DNA from: an uncultured Spirochaetota bacterium
GTDB taxonomy: Bacteria; Spirochaetota; Brevinematia; Brevinematales; JAOACQ01
Length of the DNA stretch: 64,000 nt
Assembly: GCA_963783575.1 (NCBI GenBank)
Contig: CAWAOD010000006.1
Span: forward strand, 64,001-128,000
Direction of reading: 5' to 3'
The translations under genes were made by a program, and so were the position numbers. Positions 13,396 to 46,321 of the stretch are shown here, one piece after another. The notes under the pieces were generated by a model that was not told where the DNA came from, did not search any database, and worked only from the letters and a program-made list of their open reading frames with translations. The stretch's first letter is position 1; each line of letters opens with the position of its first letter.

Positions 13396-14717
13396 GTTTT
13401 AAACTGTTATTTAATTAAAAGATAATCTTACTGTAAATAATAATTTTAGTATAAGCATATACTTCGAATATTATATATATATATAATATTCGAAATTAAT
13501 AAAATTTATATAATTAGATTATATAAAATTATGAACAACATAAAATTCAGTATCTCTATAAAATAGTAGCGTTACTATACAATTTTATTAGGAGGAAATA
13601 TATGACAAAATCTTTTCGTAGTTGCTTATTTTGTAGTTTCATGGTTCTGCTTTTTGCGGGATGTTCATTAAATTTATCATCAACGGGTGCATCTAGTGGT
13701 TCTAAGCAACAAGTAAGTCCAACACAAGATGGAGCTTCCTTAACAATTAATTTATTAGGTTCTGATTCAGTTAAAAGTAAGAGCGTTATTAATGTTCAGT
13801 CCAATCAAATCATCGGTGCAACTCTGTCTCTGGTCGGCGGCTACAATAGTTATAATACAAATTGGGTACCAGGCCAAGCATATTCATATGTATTCCAAGC
13901 GCTTTCTACCGCCGCTTACACGCTAACAATTACCGATTGGGACAATGCCGGACATACAAACACAGCCAATGCTGTAATAAATATACAAAATGGGTATAAT
14001 TACAGTATAAATGTTCAGCTTGGAGGTCAGATTTACATAAATCCGGTAAGCAATGTTCCTATCTCTAATTTAATAGCCGAATATGTCTTAAGCGGCAATG
14101 CAAACGATTACAGTGGTTATGTAAACAATGGAGTTCTAAATAATATTACATTTGTCTCTGACCGTTTCGGGAATCCAAATAGCGCCGCACATTTTACTGG
14201 AAATGTTAATAGTTATATTAATTGTTCAGCTAATATCAGTAACTATCTTACAAATCAAATAACAGTTTCCTTCTGGTTCAGAACAGCCACATATACTAAT
14301 CAGGCTATTCTTGGTAAATATGGGAATGATCAAAGTGGAGGATTTAGATTTGCCGAAATTTCAAATGGGTATGTGTTCTTTGGTGTTGCAAATGGAGCGG
14401 ATCATTTTTTAACTAATACCAATGGGCCTTTTTCGTTAAATAATTATCATCATATAGTTGGGGTTTATAATAAGTCAATAGGGTATTTCGCGCTTTATAT
14501 TGATGATGTAATAACGGTTGGAGCAGCATATACTACAGGCAATTTGAACTATACACCGCAACCGACAAACCCGGATTGTGCGAATTTTGAGCTTGGAAGA
14601 ATATGGTCTTCTGGCGTGAATTTTGAGATAGTACCAGTTGATATTGATGATGTCCGGGTTTATAACAGGGCATTAACTGACAGCGAAATCCAAGCACTTT
14701 ATCACGAGGGCGGCTGG
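12048..14717 (+). repeat. Direct duplication of a LamG module (~12048-12672 vs ~14093-14717)
   Basis: About 620 nt with high identity; both encode GNANDYSG...QPTNPDCANFELGRIWSSG...YHEGGW. Confidence 0.9.
13463..13494. promoter_or_regulatory. Perfect 32-bp AT-rich palindrome
   Basis: TTCGAATATTATATATATATATAATATTCGAA equals its own reverse complement; intergenic, ~110 nt upstream of 13602. Confidence 0.6.
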
Positions 14718-32075: not shown

Positions 32076-33770
32076 ATGAATTACAGAAACTTTAACGCGG
32101 CGATCTTTTTCACGGAAATGGATGTCTCTTCGTTTAAGGACAGGCAACAACTGGAAACTGAATTTGCTGGGGTTGAAAAGAATATCAGGGTGGGGAAGGT
32201 CTATCTTGAGACATTCCGATCCGATCAGACTGTTGATAAAAAGCAGATATTTATGCTCAATGACTTTTTTAAAAGTAAAGGTATAAAAACCTCCGGCGCA
32301 ATAACCACAACGCGCGCTTCAAAAGGGATATGGAAGACTTTCTGCTATTCCGGCAGCGAGGACAGGGAAAAATTGAAAGAAGTGGTAAAACTGACCGCTT
32401 CGATTTTCGATGAAATTATACTTGACGATTTTTTCTTTACAAATTGCAAATGCGAATCCTGCATTGCCGGCAAGGGCGAAAAAACCTGGGCCGAATACCG
32501 GGTGAAACTCCTTAACGATGCGGCCGTAGAATGCGTGATAAAGCCCGCAAAGGAAATCAACCCGGGAATTAACCTGATTATCAAATTCCCGAACTGGTAT
32601 GAGCATTACCAGAATGACGGCTATAACCTGAAGGACGAACCGGCAGTATTCGATATGATCTATACCGGGACGGAAACAAGAGACCCTGAGTATACCCAGC
32701 AGCATCTCCAGAGCTACCTGAGCTATTTTTTAATGCGGTATATGGAGAATGTCAAGCCCGGAAAAAACGGCGGCGGCTGGTTTGACACTTTCGATTGCTA
32801 TAATCCCGTTAATTATATCGAGCAGTTAAACCTGACGCTTTTTTCAAAGGCGAAAGAAGCGACGCTTTTCTGCTATCATCTGATTAAGGATTCTTTATAT
32901 CTCTCTCTCGCGGGTTTCGCGTTCGGAAAAACCGATAATTTTCTCGGTAAGCTTGGAAAACCTGCCGGGGTTTCCTGCTATAAGCCGTATCATTCTTCCG
33001 GCGAAGACCACCTTTACGACTCTATCGGGATGCTTGGAATTCCGCTGGAACCGTATCCCGAATTTCCGGCTGATAAAGATATTGTCTTTCTCACCGCCAG
33101 CGCTGCCCAAGATGATAAAATAATGGACAAAATGAAAACTTTTCTAAAAAAGGGCGGTAAGATTGTGATTACTTCCGGACTTGTTGAGAAACTTATTGGA
33201 AAAGGCATCGAAGATCTTGCTGTTTTGAAAAGAACGAATAGAAAAGTTTCAGCCCGGCAATTCGGTGTTAATCGCCAGATTTGCGCTTACCAGGATTATC
33301 ATTATTCCGACATGGATATTTCACTGCCGGTACTTGAGTATTCCACAAATGAATCCTGGCCTTTTATCGATGCGATTGACGGCCATTATTCCGCTCCGCT
33401 TCTGCTTTATAACACATACGCGGCCGGTAAGATATATATTCTGGTCATACCGGACAACTACGAAGGACTTTATCACCTTCCCCCGGAGATATTAAACGTT
33501 TTAAGAGATATTATAACGCCGGATTTTCCCGTTCAAATTGAAGGAAGGGCGAGGATCGGCCTTTTTGTTTATGATAATGATACCTTTATCGTGGAATCTT
33601 TTCTGCCATATAATGCGGTTGTTAACCTGAAAGTCCGGGTTAATGACGCAAGGCTTAGGTCTTTGACTGATGAAAAAGAACTAATACCCGCGTTATTCAA
33701 TGATAAAAATTCTATTTTCAGCGTCATGCTTGAGCCAGGAAGCTACCAGGCGTTTAAGATAGTAAGATAA
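32076..33770 (+). CDS. Conserved protein resembling GH42-like glycoside hydrolases
   Basis: DEIILDDFFFTNCKCESC; middle domain FLKKGGKIVITSG. Confidence 0.5.
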   Translation: MNYRNFNAAIFFTEMDVSSFKDRQQLETEFAGVEKNIRVGKVYLETFRSDQTVDKKQIFMLNDFFKSKGIKTSGAITTTRASKGIWKTFCYSGSEDREKLKEVVKLTASIFDEIILDDFFFTNCKCESCIAGKGEKTWAEYRVKLLNDAAVECVIKPAKEINPGINLIIKFPNWYEHYQNDGYNLKDEPAVFDMIYTGTETRDPEYTQQHLQSYLSYFLMRYMENVKPGKNGGGWFDTFDCYNPVNYIEQLNLTLFSKAKEATLFCYHLIKDSLYLSLAGFAFGKTDNFLGKLGKPAGVSCYKPYHSSGEDHLYDSIGMLGIPLEPYPEFPADKDIVFLTASAAQDDKIMDKMKTFLKKGGKIVITSGLVEKLIGKGIEDLAVLKRTNRKVSARQFGVNRQICAYQDYHYSDMDISLPVLEYSTNESWPFIDAIDGHYSAPLLLYNTYAAGKIYILVIPDNYEGLYHLPPEILNVLRDIITPDFPVQIEGRARIGLFVYDNDTFIVESFLPYNAVVNLKVRVNDARLRSLTDEKELIPALFNDKNSIFSVMLEPGSYQAFKIVR

Positions 33771-33823
33771 TTGTTTTGCCGTAAAGCCACGGCATATGGC
33801 TTTATTCCTTTCTTTCTGTGGCG

Positions 33824-35549
33824 TTGTCTGTCGAAAAATCCGAAAATATGATATAATAGTTAGTTGCAAAATTAAAGAGGGGAAAGACAATGGCGAGATA
33901 TAAGAGAGGAAATCTAGACCAGGGAGAATTGTTAGCCATCAATTTGCAGGAACAATTCGATGAATACAGCCGTGAAGTCCTTCTAAAAAAGTTTGTGGCG
34001 AAATACATTGATATACAAAGGTTTGATAAATATTATTCCAATGATGAAACAGGGCGGAAAGGGAAACATCCTCAAGATGTTATATCTGCGATTCTCTATG
34101 GTTATTTGCAAGGAATCCATTCCAGCCGCAAGGTAGAAAATCTTCTCAGAACCCACATAGGATTTATGTATGTATCAAACCGTCTTAGCATAGATCATTC
34201 AAAGCTTTGCGATTTTAAAATCCAGTTTGATGACGAAATTACAAATCTGTTTGCGACAATTCTTTTTTTATTAAATAACATAGGAGAGATTGATTGGGAT
34301 GTAGTTGTGGGGGACGGAACGAAAATCAAAGCCAATGCATCAAAGTCAAAGACGATGACCAGGGAAAGAGCCGACAAAGTGATGAGAACTTACCGCAAAA
34401 TGGCAACCAAAGTAGTTAAAAGGAGTTTGGAGACAGATGAGAAACTAAATCGTGGTGAATTGGAAGAAGAAAAGTATATGGCTGAAAAAAAGCGTATAGA
34501 ACGTCAGGAAAAGCTTTACAACAGAGTGATGGAACAGGTGGAAGTTTATCAAAAGATGCTTGAAGAAGAAAGATTAAAAGAAGGAGACAAAACCATTACA
34601 GGCAAAGATCATTATAATTTAACCGATCCCGACAGCTCTCTTACATTGGGGCCTGACAAGAGCGGATATATTCAGGGATATAATATAAGAATGATGATCA
34701 GTAACAATGACATAATACTAAGCTGTGAAAACGATAAATTGAATGAGAAATACAGTGCGAAACCCATGATCGAGGAAGTGGAAAAGCTTAAAGAGGAATT
34801 GGGGGTAAAGCAGGAAAGTAAGTACCTGCTGGATTCGGGATTTCAAAATATGACAGACATTCTGGAAATGGAAGAAAAAGGATTGGATTGCTATATTGAT
34901 ATAAAAGAGAGAGATTTTGGGAAAGAGGTACAAAAGAGAAAGAATTTTGAAATCATAAAAGGTGATAACAGAGAGTATCGGTTAAAGTGCTGTGGTGGAT
35001 TAAATACCAAAGGATACATTGATGATAAAAGAGGCAAAATCCACTTTTTCTATAATCGATCACAATGTAAGGAATGTGAAAATAATAAGGAATGTTATAC
35101 GAACATAAATCCCAGCAAAAACCAAAAGACTGTAAATTTCAATCTGTTTGAGTTAGAGAACAGAAAGGAAATCGACAGTTATCTTAATAAATTGAGAAGT
35201 GATGAAGGGCAAAAGATATACAGCAAGAGAATTGGAAAGGAACACAATTTTGCCAACCTTAAAACGCAGAAAGATTTTTCTCAAACCTATTATCGTGGAA
35301 AAGAAAAAGTAGAAATGGATTGGCTCTGGAATTCCACTTCACATAATTTGGGAAAATATTTTCAGGCTGTAATATGCAAAGGATTGAGTATATGAGAATG
35401 ATATAAAATGGTATAGGAGTGTAATTATGTAATTTAAGCTATAATAAATTGTATATGAGATTAATTTTCGGATATCTTAGAAATCAAATGTGATATCCGA
35501 ATGTTATAGAAAATCGCTTTTTCTCTTTTTATAGTTTTTCGACAGACAA
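33824..35549 (+). mobile_element. IS1182-like insertion sequence
   Basis: Perfect 15-bp TIRs TTGTCTGTCGAAAAA (33824-38) and TTTTTCGACAGACAA (35535-49); 4-bp target duplication GGCG (33820-23, 35550-53). Confidence 0.9.
33890..35395 (+). CDS. DDE transposase, IS1182-like
   Basis: YGYLQGIHSSRKVE, DGTKIKANAS, TDPDS, QGYN, LDSGF, KRIGKEHNFANLK. Confidence 0.9.
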   Translation: MARYKRGNLDQGELLAINLQEQFDEYSREVLLKKFVAKYIDIQRFDKYYSNDETGRKGKHPQDVISAILYGYLQGIHSSRKVENLLRTHIGFMYVSNRLSIDHSKLCDFKIQFDDEITNLFATILFLLNNIGEIDWDVVVGDGTKIKANASKSKTMTRERADKVMRTYRKMATKVVKRSLETDEKLNRGELEEEKYMAEKKRIERQEKLYNRVMEQVEVYQKMLEEERLKEGDKTITGKDHYNLTDPDSSLTLGPDKSGYIQGYNIRMMISNNDIILSCENDKLNEKYSAKPMIEEVEKLKEELGVKQESKYLLDSGFQNMTDILEMEEKGLDCYIDIKERDFGKEVQKRKNFEIIKGDNREYRLKCCGGLNTKGYIDDKRGKIHFFYNRSQCKECENNKECYTNINPSKNQKTVNFNLFELENRKEIDSYLNKLRSDEGQKIYSKRIGKEHNFANLKTQKDFSQTYYRGKEKVEMDWLWNSTSHNLGKYFQAVICKGLSI

Positions 35550-35852
35550 GGCGAACAGAAAGAAAGGAATCGAAAGAAAGATTCGCCCCTTCGCATTAAC
35601 ACCATTTCATGTCAAGCTATCTGTTTATTCCGAAGTGTTGTTATTCCGATCTGATTTAACATTCTTTTTTATTAAAGAGCCTCACTTTGCAGTCCTGCTA
35701 CGTTCGGGTCGCAGCCGTCCTGGCTGCGAAATACGAACGTATCGATTTATTATTAAAGGGGAATAACAACAATTTTAGTACTGAGCATTTTCAATGTAAT
35801 AACTAAGGCTCAATCAGAAATGGCGTTAATGCTGCGGGGGCAATTAAGCAAT

Positions 35853-36113
35853 CTTCGGTCACTGAGTAGCGTCTTGTTTATGGTCACTTCGATACGGGCT
35901 GAAGCCCTACTCAGTGACCGAAGTATTTCTTAAAAGATGGAGCTAAACGCGTATCGAAGTGACTGTCATGACAGCTTTTATAGTACATTTTAGAAATATA
36001 AACAAAGCCCTCTTCGCTCCCCGAGTGATCGCGATAGCGATCGTATCGAGGGGGTGTCATGACGATCGCCTCGATACAATTTTTGCTTCGCAAAAATCAC
36101 TCGGCGACCGAAG
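35853..36113. repeat. Cluster of REP-like palindromic repeats
   Basis: CTTCGGTCACTGAGTAG / CTACTCAGTGACCGAAG; GTCACTTCGATACG / CGTATCGAAGTGAC; second pair CCGAGTGAT..GTATCGAGG / CCTCGATAC..ATCACTCGG. Confidence 0.75.
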
Positions 36114-36405
36114 CCAGTTCTATACAAATCAATACTGATAACTTGACTTGTTTTATCATAAGCATTATGATTTCCCGGCATATGACATGTATTTGTGGAC
36201 AACTTTTTGTGGTAATGCGTTTACTTGGGCGATGGTGGGCTGGAGGTTTTTTTGGGGGGGTGTAACTTCGCCTCCGCCCAGTGGCTGGTAAAAAGGTTGA
36301 AAATATTGGATAATATTTATTAATTGAACATAAAAAATCATCAATTTTAAAGCAAAAAAATATTACCTATTAGTTAATGTTTTTTTAAATAGGTGGATAT
36401 GAAAT

Positions 36406-37410
36406 ATGGATTCCAGTTTACATGAAAGATTATACAATAATGAAATTAACAAAGAAAATTTAACATCGCTATTAAAAGAATACAACCCAGATCAACACAT
36501 TGCATTTATCGGATCAGGAATTAACACAACAATAAACGATATCCCTAACTATAGTCTACTTTTTAATAAATTATGTAATGGAATATATAATGAAAAAGAT
36601 AATAATAAAATTAATCCAGATTCTTTTTCTAGATTATATGAAAACTATAATGATATAGAAAATTTTGATAGGAAGGTTTTTGATATAATAACTCCTAAAA
36701 ATACAAGTGGTTCTATGACAAGTATTGATATTACCCGAGCTTTTAATTGTTTTGTAACAACAAATTATCATGAACCAATAGAAGAAGCTTTTAAAAAGAA
36801 GCAGATTATAGCACAAGAATCACCCGCAGAGTTGAAATTATTTTATTTTTCTTTTCCAACAACATTAGGGCAGCCTTCAAAACACACATTAACATATTTA
36901 CATGGTAATTCGGCTATTGGGTTCTGTATTTTAAGACAAAAAGATTATGAATACTTTTATCCTTCTTTATATCAAAAACATCTTGGAGTATATGTACTTG
37001 AAAATAGTTTATTTGATATTTTCACAAAAAAAAGTGTAGTTTTTTTAGGTTGTTCATTAGAAAAACATATAAAAGAGTATTTGAATTATCTTATTAATAA
37101 AAAGATAAATCAAATGAATCAAAAAATAAACAGGGAGAAAAAATTAATTTGTAATACCCATTATTGGATTAATAATGACATCGATATCAATCAATATTTA
37201 AGAGGAATTCCTAAACAAGAAAAAGAAAATAAATATAAAGAATATGAAAATAAATATTTTGAAAATTTTGCAAGAATAAAAATTAAACCAATAATTTATA
37301 CAGGATATCATATTTTCATAGAAGATATATGTAAATTGTTAATTCATAAGGGTGAAGATAAAAAGACACTCAAATTTGAGCAAAGCTTTGATCCAACAAA
37401 AGGAGTTTGA
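36406..37410 (+). CDS. SIR2-like (SIR2_2) domain protein, putative NADase effector
   Basis: AFIGSGIN, IPNY, FVTTNYH, YLHGN, VVFLGCSL motifs; very AT-rich. Confidence 0.75.
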   Translation: MDSSLHERLYNNEINKENLTSLLKEYNPDQHIAFIGSGINTTINDIPNYSLLFNKLCNGIYNEKDNNKINPDSFSRLYENYNDIENFDRKVFDIITPKNTSGSMTSIDITRAFNCFVTTNYHEPIEEAFKKKQIIAQESPAELKLFYFSFPTTLGQPSKHTLTYLHGNSAIGFCILRQKDYEYFYPSLYQKHLGVYVLENSLFDIFTKKSVVFLGCSLEKHIKEYLNYLINKKINQMNQKINREKKLICNTHYWINNDIDINQYLRGIPKQEKENKYKEYENKYFENFARIKIKPIIYTGYHIFIEDICKLLIHKGEDKKTLKFEQSFDPTKGV

Positions 37411-37416
37411 TAATAT

Positions 37417-40400
37417 ATGAGTTATTATGAATTATTAAATGATCTAGAGAAACTTATTATAGAATTTAGTAATGATAATGCTGCTAAAATTTTAATGCTT
37501 ATTCAACAAGATAATGCACTAGAAACTGAATTATTTAGAAGACTAAAATCTTGTTTGTGGTTTATGTGGTTAAGAGATTCTGGATTCTTTAAACCTGAAA
37601 ACATTAAATATAATTCCAAAGGTTATGCTATTTATTGGGATATTGTCGATTATCTTGAAAAAGTCTCGGAGCAGGTTTCCCAAAATCCCGAATACGGAAA
37701 AGAACTAATCGACATTATTAAAAATACGGTTGAATTTTCCATTGATAAAAAAAAGATAATAAACAATTTTTATATCTGGCAGTATTTTGTAAAGATCATT
37801 AAAAATATCCCAAACCCTATTATTGTGGAAAATTTCCCAATGGAAAACCGTGAAAAGGATGGAAATATTTCATACGGTTTCCGGACATGGTTATTTACTT
37901 TAACTGAAGCAACAAGAGATAGTGATTTTATTATTAATGATATAGCGGATTTGCTTCTGGGCAAATTCCTTGAGGATGACAACACCATAAAATATGCGGA
38001 AGCTATTATGGAATTGATGACATGGATTCAGCCGAAAAATTATAGGAGTTCAATAACCGGAAGGGATGATGCTGTGATGAAGTGGAATTCATACTGGATA
38101 TTGGAAGCCTTTAAAAAGAACCGCATCAACATCGGAAAGAAATGTTCCAAAGACTCAATTGTGGATATTGCCGGGAAACTTGAAAAAGCACTGGAGTATG
38201 AACAGAGTTTTTACGATAGAATTATTGAAACAGAGCAGGGAATATACCGGTTAAAAGTTAGCAGGGTTAAAGATGAAAAAATCGGGGAAAATGAGATCGG
38301 ATTTATTGAAAATACTTTTGAAAGTGATCTTAGCCGATATGCGTCTAAACAAATTGAAGGAATTAATTTAAAGGAAGACCCCTGGCCGCTTTACCATATC
38401 GAGCCTGAAACAGGGCTGCAAAATTTCCGTATGATCGCAAAGGATAAAGAAACATTTATTCTAAAATTGAAGGATAATTTATCCTCTTTCATTAAAAACC
38501 TGGAAACGGGAGAATTTGAAAAGGAAACCGGCCAAATGTTCGATGGATTATTTGAAGATTATTCAAATCTCTGGGCAAAATCCCTATCCGGAATAGATGA
38601 ATTAAACACAAATAATGCCAAAAATGTCATATCAATTATTTTACGAGATATTCTTATCGCAAAGTGTGAAGTTGACATTGAGATAGTAAGAGAAATTTTG
38701 AACATATTTTTAACTGATAAATACCGTTTCCCGATATTCCGAAAGTTTGTACTATTTTTCGTCCATAAGCAATGGGCTTATCAGGAATTATTATATAAAT
38801 TCTTTGATATTACATCAAATCCCCTGGAAAAAGCGAATTATAATGTTGAACTATATGATATCCTGCATAACAACTATGATAATTTTACATTTGAATTTAA
38901 AGAGCATATTAAAAAACAGATTTTCAAAATCCCTGATTATTTTAATAAAAAGGAAGCTTCATATATAGCTTATTGGCAATACCGATGGCTTTCGCCTCTT
39001 TCCGGTCATCCCGAATTTTCAGAAGCATATTCAAAAGCCAGAAAGGAAGCGGAAGTTGAAGAAGACAGGCCATACGAGCCGGAAAGGTCTATGAAAATCA
39101 GCGCAGGTTTTGTAGGTCATGTATCGTCTTTGTCAAAAGAACAGATACTTCAAATGCCTATTTCTGAATTAATAAAATACATAAATGAATTTAAAGAAGT
39201 AGATTCAAACAAAAATCCTTTTGATAATAAACCGGACAGAGAAGGTTTGGCCAGAGTGCTGCAGTCCGCTGTTGCGGAAAATCCCTCAAAGTTCTGTAAT
39301 GAAATTTCAGTTTTTTTACAAGTTGATTATTACTATCTTTATCATATCTTCAGGGGCTTTATTGATGCATGGAGATCGAAAAAAGAACTGGTTTGGGGTA
39401 ATTTATTTGATTTTATCATTAAATACATGGAAAAAGGTGGGGATGAAATTCTTAAAGAGGCTTTGAAGGCCCAGGGTGATGATTTCGGGAATGGAAGATA
39501 TATTTGGATGGTTGAAGTTATTGTTGATTTAATAGAGGAAGGTTCCAGGGATGATCATAGGGCTTTTGATCATGCTCTATTTTAATCAGGTTGATCAAAT
39601 ATATGAATTAATCCACACACTCCTGAAAGGCGAAAAACAGCCCAACACTCAAAGGGATGCCATCACTTACGCGTTAAATACAACATTGGGGAAAACAATT
39701 GAGTCTTTTATTATATATTCTTTGAGACGTGCAAGAGTAACAGGGGTAAGAATTGAAAATTGGGGCAAAACAAAGTATGATAGGTATTTTGATATCGGCG
39801 TCGAAGCCTATATCTGGTTCGGCCGCTTTTTGGCGAATATAAACTATCTGGATGAAGATTTTACCCGTGAAAAGATCAAAACTTTAGCTGAAAACCGGAT
39901 AGACGAATATAGCTGGCGGAATTTCATGGGCGGATATTTATCCGGGTCGCAGGTTTATAAAGATATATATTCCTATATGAGGCCGAATTATTATAAAGCC
40001 GTGGAGTATGGCAAGTTTGATGAAAATGTTGATTCAAGGCTTGTCAATCATATCGCCATTGGTTATCTATACGGTTACGATCAATTGGATACTAACAATC
40101 TGGATGGAAATCCCAGCCTCTTTTACAAGATGCTCAATGAAGCTGTGAGAGTGGAGAAAAAGAAAAGATGGGAAGAAACGGTCAATTTTTTCTGGTCTTT
40201 GTCGGGAAGGACTATCCATAAAAAAGATATTGAAAATAATGATGAAATAGAAGAAGAAACAAAAAGTAAAATAATAGATTTCTGGAGATGGACTTATGAA
40301 AATCGAGAATATATCAAAGAAATGCTGGATAATGAAGATTATCATTTATTTCTGGGCAGCATTTCTCAATTAGTAATTGTACTGAATAAAATTGATGATA

Positions 40401-40711
40401 ACTCATCAGATTGGATTGAGTTATGCGCCCCTTATATAAATATTCACCAAAATTCCTCATTTTTTATTGAATATTTAACAAAGTTTGAAGACGATGAAAG
40501 CATCAAACATATTGGAAATATATATCTGAAAATTCTTGAATATTTTATACCTACTTTCGGGGAAGAAGATATAAAGCAGACTATTGAAAAATTATATAAG
40601 CTTGGCGTAAAAGATGCCGAAGTAAAAAATGTCGCTGATAATATTTGTGAAATTTATGGCCGCCGTGGGATTCATATTTTGAAAGATTTGTGGGATAAGT
40701 ATAATACTTAA
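37417..40711 (+). pseudogene. ~1097-aa predicted helical protein, partner of the SIR2 gene, +1 frameshift at ~39580
   Basis: CTATTTTAAT: removing one T joins ORF 37417..39585 to 39551..40711. AAGGAG SD lies inside the SIR2 3' end. May be intact in vivo. Confidence 0.65.
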
Positions 40712-40760
40712 TAATTATGAATTGAATCACTTTATTTTTGAATAGATTTATTATTACCTG

Positions 40761-40976
40761 TCAGTTGACAAATAAGCTATATTTGAAAAAACTAAGGTTC
40801 CTTTGCTCCCAGATAACAACCGGAACGTTTTTATCCATCAGTTTTTCCATTAGTCCGGGACTGATTGAACCTGTCTCAATGGCGGTGGATGAAGCTACAT
40901 TTGTGATTATCATTTTTTCCAGATTTTCAGGGTCTTTCAGGTTGGGATTGGATAGGATTAAAGGTATATTTTTCAT
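40761..40976 (-). CDS. Small hypothetical protein, possibly VbhA/Fic-antitoxin-like
   Basis: NPNLKDP...NVASSTAIET resembles the (S/T)xxxE(G/N) inhibitory motif. Confidence 0.35.
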   Translation of the reverse strand: MKNIPLILSNPNLKDPENLEKMIITNVASSTAIETGSISPGLMEKLMDKNVPVVIWEQRNLSFFKYSLFVN

Positions 40977-41062
40977 ACATTAATTATAAACAGCTATTGT
41001 AATAAAGTCAATCGACATAGAGAAACAAATTTAGGGGGAAGCTCATCCAATGCCCGATAATT

Positions 41063-41406
41063 TTGCTCCCCGCAGCAGGAGCGCCATTTCTGATTGAGCC
41101 TTCATTTGACTAAAAGAAATCTCAGTATAACAATCGTTGTTATTCAAAATTAACATGAACTGAACAAGTTTAAGGGTTTCAGACAGGAGGTCTGAAACCG
41201 AGGAATCAGTCTAGGACGGACTGATGACGAGGCGATTACTAAAAGACATGTTTAAGAAAACCCGAATAACAACACCTCAGTACTTAAAGACAGCTTAACA
41301 TGAAATGGTGTTCATGCGTAGGGGTGGCTTTTTTCTTTTGCTCCTTTTCTTTTTTGGCCAGTTCAAAAAAGAAAAGGAGAGAGCCCCATTGCCGCTTCCG
41401 GCAATC
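41063..41406 (+). ncRNA. Structured non-coding element, copy 2 (intact)
   Basis: Stems GAGCGCCATTTC/GAAATGGTGTTC, TTGAGC/GCTTAA, GTTGTTATTC/GAATAACAAC; hairpins with CAGGAGG and TAGGACG centres; 3' TTTTTTCTTTT-CTCCTTTTCTTTTTTG...CAAAAAAGAAAAGGAG. Confidence 0.7.
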
Positions 41407-42028
41407 AATAAATTTTATATTTTTTAAGAAACTGATCGGCAGTTTTACGTGTTTTAGGGCTTCCGCTTTCAAGACCTTTTTTCACGAAACGTGCGATTTC
41501 TTCCTTATTTAGAGCCTTAGGATATAATTTTTCAAAAGCCTCAATAACATAAGCCTTGATAAGGTTCTTACGGCTTTGAGTTTGATTTGTTTTTTCAATT
41601 TCCAGCAGTGCCCCGATTATATCCGGTATAAGCCCGGGCTTAAATTCTGCGATAACTGCGGCGTTTATTGCTATATGTGACGCCACCATAACCGAACCGC
41701 AGTCAAGCTGCGCGAAGTAATCCTGGAAATCCCTTTCGAATTTATTTTCCCGGTCAATTTTTGTAAGATTTGCTATGACATAAAGCGCCGCGTATTGCGA
41801 AAAACCATTATCGCTTTTAAGATAATCCATAAAAATTTCCCATTTGCCGTATAAAAGTTCCGGGTTCTTAATACTTAATTCAATTAAAAGCGGGATGAAC
41901 AGTTCCCTCTCTTCCATTTTCTTCTTTTCCGGGGATATCCCGTCAATTGCTTCCATTAAATAGCTTCCATCGGAAATAGCCTTTTTATAAATAACAGGAT
42001 CTATTTTAACCTCTCTGCTTCCGCTCAT
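41405..42028 (-). CDS. Hypothetical HEAT/armadillo-like helical protein
   Basis: 207-aa ORF with GGAGG SD; helical pattern. Confidence 0.6.
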   Translation of the reverse strand: MSGSREVKIDPVIYKKAISDGSYLMEAIDGISPEKKKMEERELFIPLLIELSIKNPELLYGKWEIFMDYLKSDNGFSQYAALYVIANLTKIDRENKFERDFQDYFAQLDCGSVMVASHIAINAAVIAEFKPGLIPDIIGALLEIEKTNQTQSRKNLIKAYVIEAFEKLYPKALNKEEIARFVKKGLESGSPKTRKTADQFLKKYKIY

Positions 42029-44943: not shown

Positions 44944-46321
44944 TTATCTCAAGAAAAGTTTTAAAATCCATAGCTTCCTTTTTGCCGGAGGGTAACGGAA
45001 AGGGAAATCAATAATAAAGGAATTCCTGTAGATGGCTTTTAAATGGCTTAAGCTGTTGAATCCGGCCAAGCCATGACATGATCCCATACCGCTATTGCCA
45101 ATGCCTCCGAAAGGAAGGTAGGGATTTCCGAAGTGCGCCTGTGTATCGTTTATAGAACAGCCGCCGGAAGATGTACCGTTTATAATTTGTTTTTGTTTTT
45201 GCCGGTTGTTCGAGAAAAAATAAAGCGCCAGCGGATTAGGACGGCTGTTAATAAAAAGGATGGCCTCGTCCAGGGCATTGTAATCAATTACCGGCAGGAT
45301 CGGTCCGAAAATCTCCTCCTGCATAACCGGATCATCCACTGAAATTTCATCTAAAATCGTAGGAGCTATATACCGGCTTTCACTATCGAACTTACCTCCT
45401 GTAACTGTTCTGCCTTTCTTTAATAATCCGGCAAGTCTTTCCATATGCTTATCATTTATTATCCTAGAATAATCAGGACTTTTCTCCGGATCATCCCCGT
45501 AAAAATGCTTTAAGTATTCTTTCATTTTTATAACAAGATCCTGTTTTATGCTTTTATCGACCAGCAGATAATCCGGAGCGACACAGGTCTTGGCCGGCAT
45601 TAAGAAATTTTCCCCAGACAATCCTTTTTGCCGTAAGATCAATATTCGCTTCACTGTCAACAATAGCCGGGCTTTTTCCGCCAAGCTCAAGAAGAACCGG
45701 TGTAAGGTTTCTTGAGGCGGCTTCCATAACTTCCTTTCCGACATCCGGGCTGCCTGTAAAAACTATAAAATCGAATTTTTCCCGGAGCAGTTGTTGATTT
45801 ACATCGGAGCCGCCCTGGAAAACAGAGATATATTCCTGGCTGAAATATTCACCTATCATATCATTAATTACCTTCGAAACCGCCGGTGAATATCTGGAAA
45901 GCTTTAATGCGGCGCAGTTTCCGGCTGAAAGGACGCTAACAAGCGGTGATAATGCCAGCATGAAAGGATAATTCCATGGCGATATAACAAGTACGATTCC
46001 ATGGGGTTCGGGATAAACCAGGCTTTTACCCGGGAATAAAAAAATCGGTGTATAAGCTTTTCTGGGTTTTGACCATGAACTTAAATGCCGGATGTGAACA
46101 CTGATTTCATTTAATACAAGCCCTATCTCGGTAGCGTATGACTCGAAATGCGACTTGCCGAGATCATCGAACAACGCTTTCGCAATTCTGTCTTCATACC
46201 TTTGAACTGCTTCCTTAAGCCGTTTAAGCATTATCAACCTGTATGAAATTTCTTTTGTCCGGCCGCTTTTAAAAAACTCCCTTTGTTTATTAATAATCTC
46301 TTTGATATTTGCATCATTCAT
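44944..46321 (-). pseudogene. Aldehyde dehydrogenase (class 3-like), +1 frameshift at ~45590
   Basis: PWNYP, FTGS, LELGGK, GKFLNAGQ/TCVAPDY (extra A in GGCCAAGACC), EEIFGP, PFGGIGNSG. Confidence 0.85.

Follow-up and report, generated by a model that had tools for sequence, protein, structure and literature searches.

What are two large folded elements doing on either side of a candidate anti-phage locus? The window analysed here, a whole stretch of 64,000 nt (contig CAWAOD010000006.1) from an uncultured Spirochaetota bacterium, carries two non-coding elements of about 340 nt that face away from each other around a SIR2-like and a Dsr1-like gene. An earlier note, made from the letters alone, had described them as a pair of diverged, structured homologs. 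We find that they belong to a dispersed repeat with a constant 3′ cap and exchangeable bodies, that foreign defence DNA collects on its 5′ side and host genes on its 3′ side, and that it is probably related to the TwoAYGGAY motif. We compared the source genome (G000, 4.9 Mb) mainly with a congener (G001, 57% complete) and with a genome of another genus (G011).

The observation of paired folded elements holds, and both are real copies of the repeat. The shared words CGCCATTTCTGATTGAGCCTT (35805 on the minus strand and 41082) and ACATGAAATGGTGTT (35598 on the minus strand and 41298) lie exactly where the earlier note placed them, and the inner stem GTTGTTATTC/GAATAACAAC is present in both copies. 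Once an insertion sequence (IS) is removed the copies are collinear, as claimed, and 62% identical over the aligned part. Freed of the IS in silico, the left copy is 344 nt long, with a fold of −124 kcal/mol. For the right copy the value is −117 kcal/mol (z −7.5, matched by none of 100 shuffles), and for its opposite strand −104 kcal/mol (z −3.7). When the fold was computed as DNA it was likewise significant (z −5.4).

The common fold with altered stems seen in the window pair extends to the family. In 19 aligned copies, pairing was found in 90.2% of 1011 cells, and 26 of 66 pairs had changed on both sides, compared with 1–10 when the partners were slid, a test in which the relatedness of the copies inflates the shuffle control. 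The statement that most stem mismatches read as G-U on one strand did not survive: family-wide there were 30 G-U and 24 A-C cells, or 18 and 18 distinct events. The asymmetry is present in the closing stem (22:7) but not in the remaining stems, and so it does not decide between an RNA and a single-stranded DNA form. The orientation of the elements follows instead from the GGA loops, the pyrimidine-motif triplex and the strand of the Rfam alignment.

At the 3′ end a pseudoknot forms between the bases that follow a GGGG and the loop of the hairpin downstream. The intervening pyrimidine run matches the purine strand of that hairpin in parallel (T with A, C with G), which is the pattern of a Hoogsteen third strand. 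The third strand fitted its own copy better than permuted copies (8.87 versus 6.99 nt), and the pseudoknot did the same (3.43 versus 2.54 pairs), each with 0 of 20000 permutations as good (n = 23, a set that retains one mis-parsed row). A geometry scan with almost no fixed sequence found 14 sites in the genome, all inside elements, and none in two shuffled genomes. From these sequence patterns we infer that the pseudoknot carries a covarying triple helix, in line with the triplex-type motif reported earlier. A conserved small open reading frame of the type I toxin kind was not seen in the alignment, as judged by eye with no scripted test, and no 5–6-nt GMTBT(T) repeat array was obvious upstream, again by eye with no count made.

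The two-hairpin core points to a named relative, TwoAYGGAY (Rfam RF01731). Four of 20 copies aligned to this model at 37.2, 35.3, 27.5 and 26.8 bits (E<1), below the cut-off of 43 bits, and the alignment covers model positions 1–168 of 168 on the strand chosen in the earlier note. All three RF01731 matches in the genome fall inside elements; none of 31 genomes had a match over 43 bits. The Rfam check on the window itself gave no match at the gathering threshold, and at E≤10 the region returned only microRNA and small nucleolar RNA noise, with no RF01731; what stands is the sub-threshold, end-to-end alignment of the core. The elements do have two sequential hairpins on a common basal stem, with covarying stems. 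GGA is found in both loops in 18 of 19 copies, mostly as CAGGAC or AAGGAY, and exact ATGGAT or ACGGAT loops occur in some G001 and G011 copies. The elements probably work like, and are related to, the extended TwoAYGGAY class, although they stay below formal RF01731 membership. The earlier view that no named class applied is superseded by this sub-threshold match and by a 2026 preprint that describes an extended form with divergent doublets (bioRxiv 10.64898/2026.09.22.753630).

An iterated nhmmer search gave 55 matches in the source genome. These were merged by hand into 40 loci, and the addition of three and removal of one fragment gave 42. The sequence model had 38 matches in G001. Pairwise identity among copies is 50–90%, with a median of 64%, and 12 of the 42 loci retain the 5′ arm without the cap. 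A second subfamily has other closing-stem arms in which pairing is preserved. Among nine cap-only matches examined in G001, seven join the same cap to an unrelated body and two are disrupted. A model of the cap (65 positions, 35 sequences) was 97% paired, with changes on both sides in 13 of 15 pairs. It matched 15 of 31 relatives, 14–70 times in seven of them (matches, not copy numbers), and 10 of 141 genomes of the phylum. The full-length sequence model, with 15 candidates scored in each genome, matched only one of 101 genomes from the phylum and was judged too narrow, because the cap model and local hidden Markov models found further relatives. Exact patterns occurred at two loci in genome contigs, and at none in viral contigs or metagenomes; blastn against plasmids and phages returned nothing meaningful.

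Segments within the source-genome copies share no common history (n = 16): Mantel r was 0.01, 0.00 and 0.07 compared with 0.83 for the control, low values that may come in part from short, saturated segments, which counts against the exchange proposed below. The cap is constant, the bodies are exchangeable and the copies are mosaic. Lone closing-stem 5′ arms with reversed copies of the long-variant hairpins lie 124–190 nt upstream of full elements (G000 C11:628940 (−), C11:91139 (+), C16:120371 (+); C11:78560 (−)), and in one copy the interior appears inverted relative to the cap. Together, lone arms and reversed hairpins suggest recombination at the arms. Cargo-free back-to-back doublets of about 490 nt were found in another family (at least seven examples). 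The compact doublet spacers of loci L157, L158 and L160 are AT-rich and closed by short AACAGCC/GGCTGTT inverted repeats, and a similar motif lies near 14100 in G001 locus L052.

Neighbouring elements within 10 kb in the source genome were divergent in eight cases, convergent in none and tandem in three (42 loci; null expectation 0.85 divergent, 0/5000). In G001 the corresponding numbers were 12, 0 and 7 (40 merged matches, 20 loci). Outward-facing pairs of this family enclose variable accessory and defence DNA. The earlier note had left a choice between a module boundary and independent insertion; both occur, with 16 of the 42 loci in the eight divergent pairs and the rest outside them.

The two sides of an element differ in what they carry. 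The GC content of the first gene was 0.335 on the 5′ side (n = 41) and 0.392 on the 3′ side (n = 29; p 0.003). PADLOC matches of at least 100 bits were found for 18 of 78 proteins on the 5′ side, or 14 after removal of three ankyrin and one IS-ATPase cross-hits, compared with 2 of 81 on the 3′ side. Represented among the 5′ matches are two loci of the Dsr1-like kind, restriction genes of types I, II and IIG, a reverse transcriptase-nitrilase DRT and PDC candidates, whereas the 3′ neighbours include upp, asd, ychF, pyrB-like and tsaB-like genes. Of the G001 neighbours, 24 of the 35 that lie 3′ have a G000 homologue at 50–90% identity, as against 5 of the 37 that lie 5′; the pair spacers of G001 likewise contain defence-like genes. 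A complete type I-E CRISPR-Cas locus lies within a homologous pair (E 1e-15 to 1e-19) of G011; four congeners have neither elements nor cas genes in the 10–13 kb upstream of mreB. Pairs face outward; their 5′ sides adjoin foreign defence DNA and their 3′ sides host genes.

The sites differ between lineages. Of the 24 G000 homologues of genes lying 3′ of G001 elements, only two, one of them an IS gene, had a G000 element no more than 800 nt away. A restriction cargo of 2,364 bp is shared by G000 and G001 at 91% identity but occupies different host loci, in each case directly 5′ of an element or a fragment of one. The earlier claim that each 3′ end abuts the stop codon of a convergent gene is true of both window copies but, though common, is not general: of 29 intact 3′ ends, 12 have a convergent gene opposite, with the stop within 14 nt in eight of these.

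Between the window copies, the REP-like (repetitive extragenic palindromic) cluster and the SIR2 gene reported earlier are both present. The two Dsr1-like frames match consecutive parts of the PADLOC Dsr1 profile at 187 and 135 bits, and most of 98 longer homologues are single proteins of 1065–1244 aa. The SIR2-like gene had no PADLOC match at 1e-8. The first 240 nt of the Dsr1-like gene (37417–37656) have 25% GC, like the SIR2 gene, and the remainder has 34%, a step hinting at a swapped effector and N-terminus. In G008, at L173 and L174 (C3:583000-602571 and C3:524000-540000), near-identical capped elements mark the points where repeated cassettes meet. The cassettes have LysM or, presumably, Rhs-core-like fragments and resemble orphan polymorphic-toxin arrays; Pfam supports LysM only.

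How would such pairs arise? The two window elements would be the two arms of one back-to-back doublet, and their family a non-autonomous mobile repeat of the extended TwoAYGGAY type. In each arm a long closing stem surrounds an exchangeable body, which in the window consists of two GGA-loop hairpins, and the constant 3′ cap (pseudoknot, predicted triple helix, terminal hairpin) follows. The sites of the arms differ between lineages, the cap points to host genes, and the doublet spacer gathers foreign, often anti-phage DNA. We propose that a recombination enzyme, either of the host or acting in trans, recognises the folded single strand and would place cap ends at gene boundaries, and that recombination between arms would let cargo enter, leave or be swapped in the spacer, by which a doublet of about 0.5 kb could grow to an island of 1–11 kb. 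Once transcribed, the GGA hairpins probably bind CsrA, a second function at the RNA level. We favour a doublet-bounded slot driven by recombination at folded arms over a passive landing ground, and give it a little short of an even chance. A wider proposal, which we advance tentatively and regard as rather doubtful, is that the cap is the recognised end of an undescribed non-coding mobile class in which TwoAYGGAY is only one of several passenger bodies, and that the pairs are self-propagating slots that capture and exchange complete defence systems (restriction, Dsr1-like, DRT, CRISPR-Cas), no recombinase being encoded.

Several results weigh against a slot driven by recombination. No target-site duplication was detected, as words shared by the flanks were no longer than in non-cognate pairings. 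No integron integrase (TIGR02249) scored over the cut-off in G000 or G001, serine recombinases not being part of the search. Y1/RAYT genes (Y1_Tnp) were found in 4 of 31 genomes and in only one of the seven relatives with at least 14 cap matches. The check for an empty site recovered no clean one in the relatives compared; in G000, other genes over a distance of 7.3 kb separate the flanks of one G001 pair, and five genomes searched for the left flank of the CRISPR-enclosing pair gave no match. Copies at 50–90% identity (median 64%) are also poor RecA substrates. Several 5′ neighbours are ordinary genes, 26 of the 42 loci lie outside divergent pairs, and the loci of one genome are non-independent samples. 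As a separate observation, G000 carries a broken integron-integrase-like gene (C5:457129-458178; one partial match, C5:457467) followed by several short same-strand genes.

The most serious alternative, unlikely in our estimate, is that the elements are mainly RNA genes, namely CsrA sponges with a triplex-protected 3′ end, that spread by ordinary duplication and conversion, and that the promoter spacer of a doublet is only a tolerant landing ground for foreign DNA and ISs. The genome has 127 matches to the motif ACA(R)GGAYGT, the core of the CsrA consensus of E. coli (PMC8668096); 13 of these lie in elements, which make up 0.3% of the genome, and all 13 are on the element strand. The source genome has adjoining csrA and fliW genes, and the sponge idea is already in print (bioRxiv 10.64898/2026.09.22.753630). 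However, several bodies with the same cap lack the two-hairpin core. CsrA is present in 30 of 31 genomes and the cap in only 15, and CsrA is so nearly universal that its co-occurrence with the elements is uninformative. Promoter scans were at about chance level, and none clearly read into either window copy. A look-up of sequencing runs, as a source on expression, returned none.

A landing ground agrees with the way in which the elements are themselves targeted by ISs and REP-like DNA. The window IS encodes a 501-aa DDE/DUF772 transposase, is flanked by a 4-bp duplication GGCG (33820–23 and 35550–53), and is, we presume from these domains, of the IS1182 type. Five of its seven genome copies lie inside the pseudoknot loop of an element, and a sixth lies beside a 3′ module on one side. 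An IS110-family element stands directly after the CCCC of a 5′ arm in two of three copies, the third site having a similar motif (G000 C5:70651, C13:279736 and C16:220245). As a separate observation, a 1.85-kb element with four copies in G000 (C13:248240, C9:332046, C9:535796, C16:108401) and one in G001 (L065:11530-13393, 89% identity) adjoins the folded elements twice. The sponge explanation nevertheless leaves unexplained the lineage-specific sites and the presence of the same cargo beside an element at different host loci.

An improbable alternative is an RNA resembling a short interspersed nuclear element, inserted 3′ end first by a reverse transcriptase in trans with an upstream transcript as cargo. 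It would account for the sharp, conserved 3′ cap with a ragged 5′ side and for the closeness of convergent stops. Cargo genes are however on both strands (22 same as the element, 19 opposite), neither a duplication nor a tail is present, divergent pairs around 10-kb loci would be unexpected, and the 5′ arms that lack a cap do not fit. About the same slim chance is given to a REPIN-like passenger moved by a RAYT (REP-associated Y1 HUH transposase) with its adjacent REP palindromes. Both Y1/RAYT-like genes of G000 sit inside divergent pairs (C3:121030, C4:184483), of the nine genome matches to each of two words of the REP cluster, eight and seven, respectively, lie no more than 500 nt 5′ of an element, and REP arrays are reported beside Pseudomonas copies in the preprint's text (bioRxiv 10.64898/2026.09.22.753630). 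Among the 42 loci, on the other hand, only five are flanked by one of the two main REP words and only four by the other, and Y1_Tnp was not found in six of the seven relatives rich in cap matches (completeness is only 57% and 73% for two of the six). An ordinary DDE transposon or miniature inverted-repeat element whose terminal inverted repeats have decayed would give the inverted arrangement around cargo, but this very improbable reading, which the earlier note also argued against, is largely refuted by 62% identity with structure-preserving changes, a direction-specific pseudoknot and triplex, the absence of a target duplication and the many single and tandem copies.

The features of the window are listed in Table 1. 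Orthologues of the left host gene were found in three of five relatives; next to the one in G001 is another gene, with no element listed there. On the right, the convergent gene taken earlier for a host gene is present, but its core status does not follow, as a query found no homologue in any of five relatives. Between cargo and right element, a 71-aa frame (40761–40976, minus strand) looks like a gene remnant, presumably Fic-like; an 11/12 sigma-70 match lies upstream of it (41011–40983). Further right, a gene at 44944–46321 (minus strand), presumably aldehyde-dehydrogenase-like, seems to be split into two overlapping frames.

Table 1. Features in and around the element pair (positions in the window)
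Feature	Position	Strand	Basis
Host gene, 564 aa, no Pfam family; stop ~6 nt from left terminal hairpin	32076–33770	+	
Left element, 3′ end: pseudoknot loop remnant, triplex-hairpin purine arm (33804–33819), terminal hairpin (33777–33794)	33777–33823	−	Sequence, IS-free fold
IS in pseudoknot loop; transposase 33890–35395	33824–35549	+	Pfam DUF772, DDE_Tnp_1_6
Left element, 5′ part: closing-stem arms 35817–32 and 35593–608, inner stem, two GGA-loop hairpins (~35689–35729), pseudoknot strand, third strand	35554–35848	−	
REP-like palindrome cluster against left element 5′ end	35853–36113	.	
SIR2-like cargo gene, 334 aa, 24% GC	36406–37410	+	Pfam SIR2_2, E 7e-11
Dsr1-like large cargo gene in two overlapping frames (722 aa, 386 aa; break near 39551–39585)	37417–40711	+	PADLOC Dsr1
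Right element: closing stem 41075–90 with 41302–17, inner stem, GGA hairpins 41175–99 and 41205–25	41063–41405	+	
Right element, 3′ part: pseudoknot strand 41325–28 with loop 41357–63, third strand 41329–39, triplex hairpin 41340–80, terminal hairpin 41388–405		+	
Convergent gene, 207 aa, no Pfam family; stop touches right terminal hairpin	41405–42028	−	

Back-to-back pairs, which here and in related bacteria often enclose foreign anti-phage genes, may point to a way in which defence islands are built, and they bear on the open question of how such islands form at fixed spots without an integrase of their own. In at least three genomes of two genera, a non-coding landmark predicts the side on which foreign defence genes lie, which makes the mechanism testable. 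New defence genes could be mined from among the genes that lie 5′ of the cap, many of them without a family. The orphan TwoAYGGAY motif is recast as a body within a triplex-capped frame, and a heavily covarying natural bacterial triple helix, still a prediction, is offered for structural work.

The TwoAYGGAY motif is Rfam RF01731 of clan CL00106 (Weinberg et al. 2010, PMC2864571). Like it, the elements here have two GGA-loop hairpins on a shared basal stem and are multi-copy and intergenic; unlike it, they are sub-threshold and twice as long, their loops are mostly not AYGGAY and their core can be replaced by other bodies. The class itself is not new. The preprint's main text (bioRxiv 10.64898/2026.09.22.753630) describes extended TwoAYGGAY elements in tens of copies with a long basal stem, a 3′ pseudoknot, extra hairpins and divergent doublets (68%; median spacer 249 bp), with an association with REPs (the Pseudomonas arrays) and large variation in copy number. 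It finds the extension largely confined to Pseudomonadota and proposes that the elements sponge Csr and spread in a mobile-like way. The present elements share with these the long basal stem, the 3′ pseudoknot (equivalent as far as that text describes it), the extra hairpins, tens of variable copies, the divergent doublets and the association with REPs; the elements here are in Spirochaetota, have spacers of 1–11 kb with defence cargo, and carry REPs on the 5′ rather than the 3′ side. The words "triplex" and "cargo" were not found in the preprint's main text, nor were the triple helix, the constant cap with variable body, the outward pair orientation or the one-sided defence cargo. Searches of open-access papers gave nothing relevant on a triplex-capped repeat bounding defence cargo.

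With sponges of the CsrB/RsmZ type, as presented in PMC4333381 and PMC8668096, the elements share GGA in hairpin loops, in some cases as the consensus core. They differ in that a copy usually offers two sites, in being dispersed as some 40 copies, and in having a long closing rod, a triplex cap and a host with FliW; their binding of CsrA is a prediction. REP/REPIN-RAYT and BIME/ERIC-type repeats are dispersed palindromes that form inverted doublets and are targeted by ISs. The present elements resemble them in each of these respects, but are 340 nt long with tertiary structure and have no consistent RAYT. Integron attC arrays, pdif modules and composite transposons are repeats that bound exchangeable accessory genes. 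The elements described here differ from them in that there is no integrase over the cut-off, no duplication and no coding capacity, and in their outward-facing polarity; like them, they bound accessory genes that can be exchanged.

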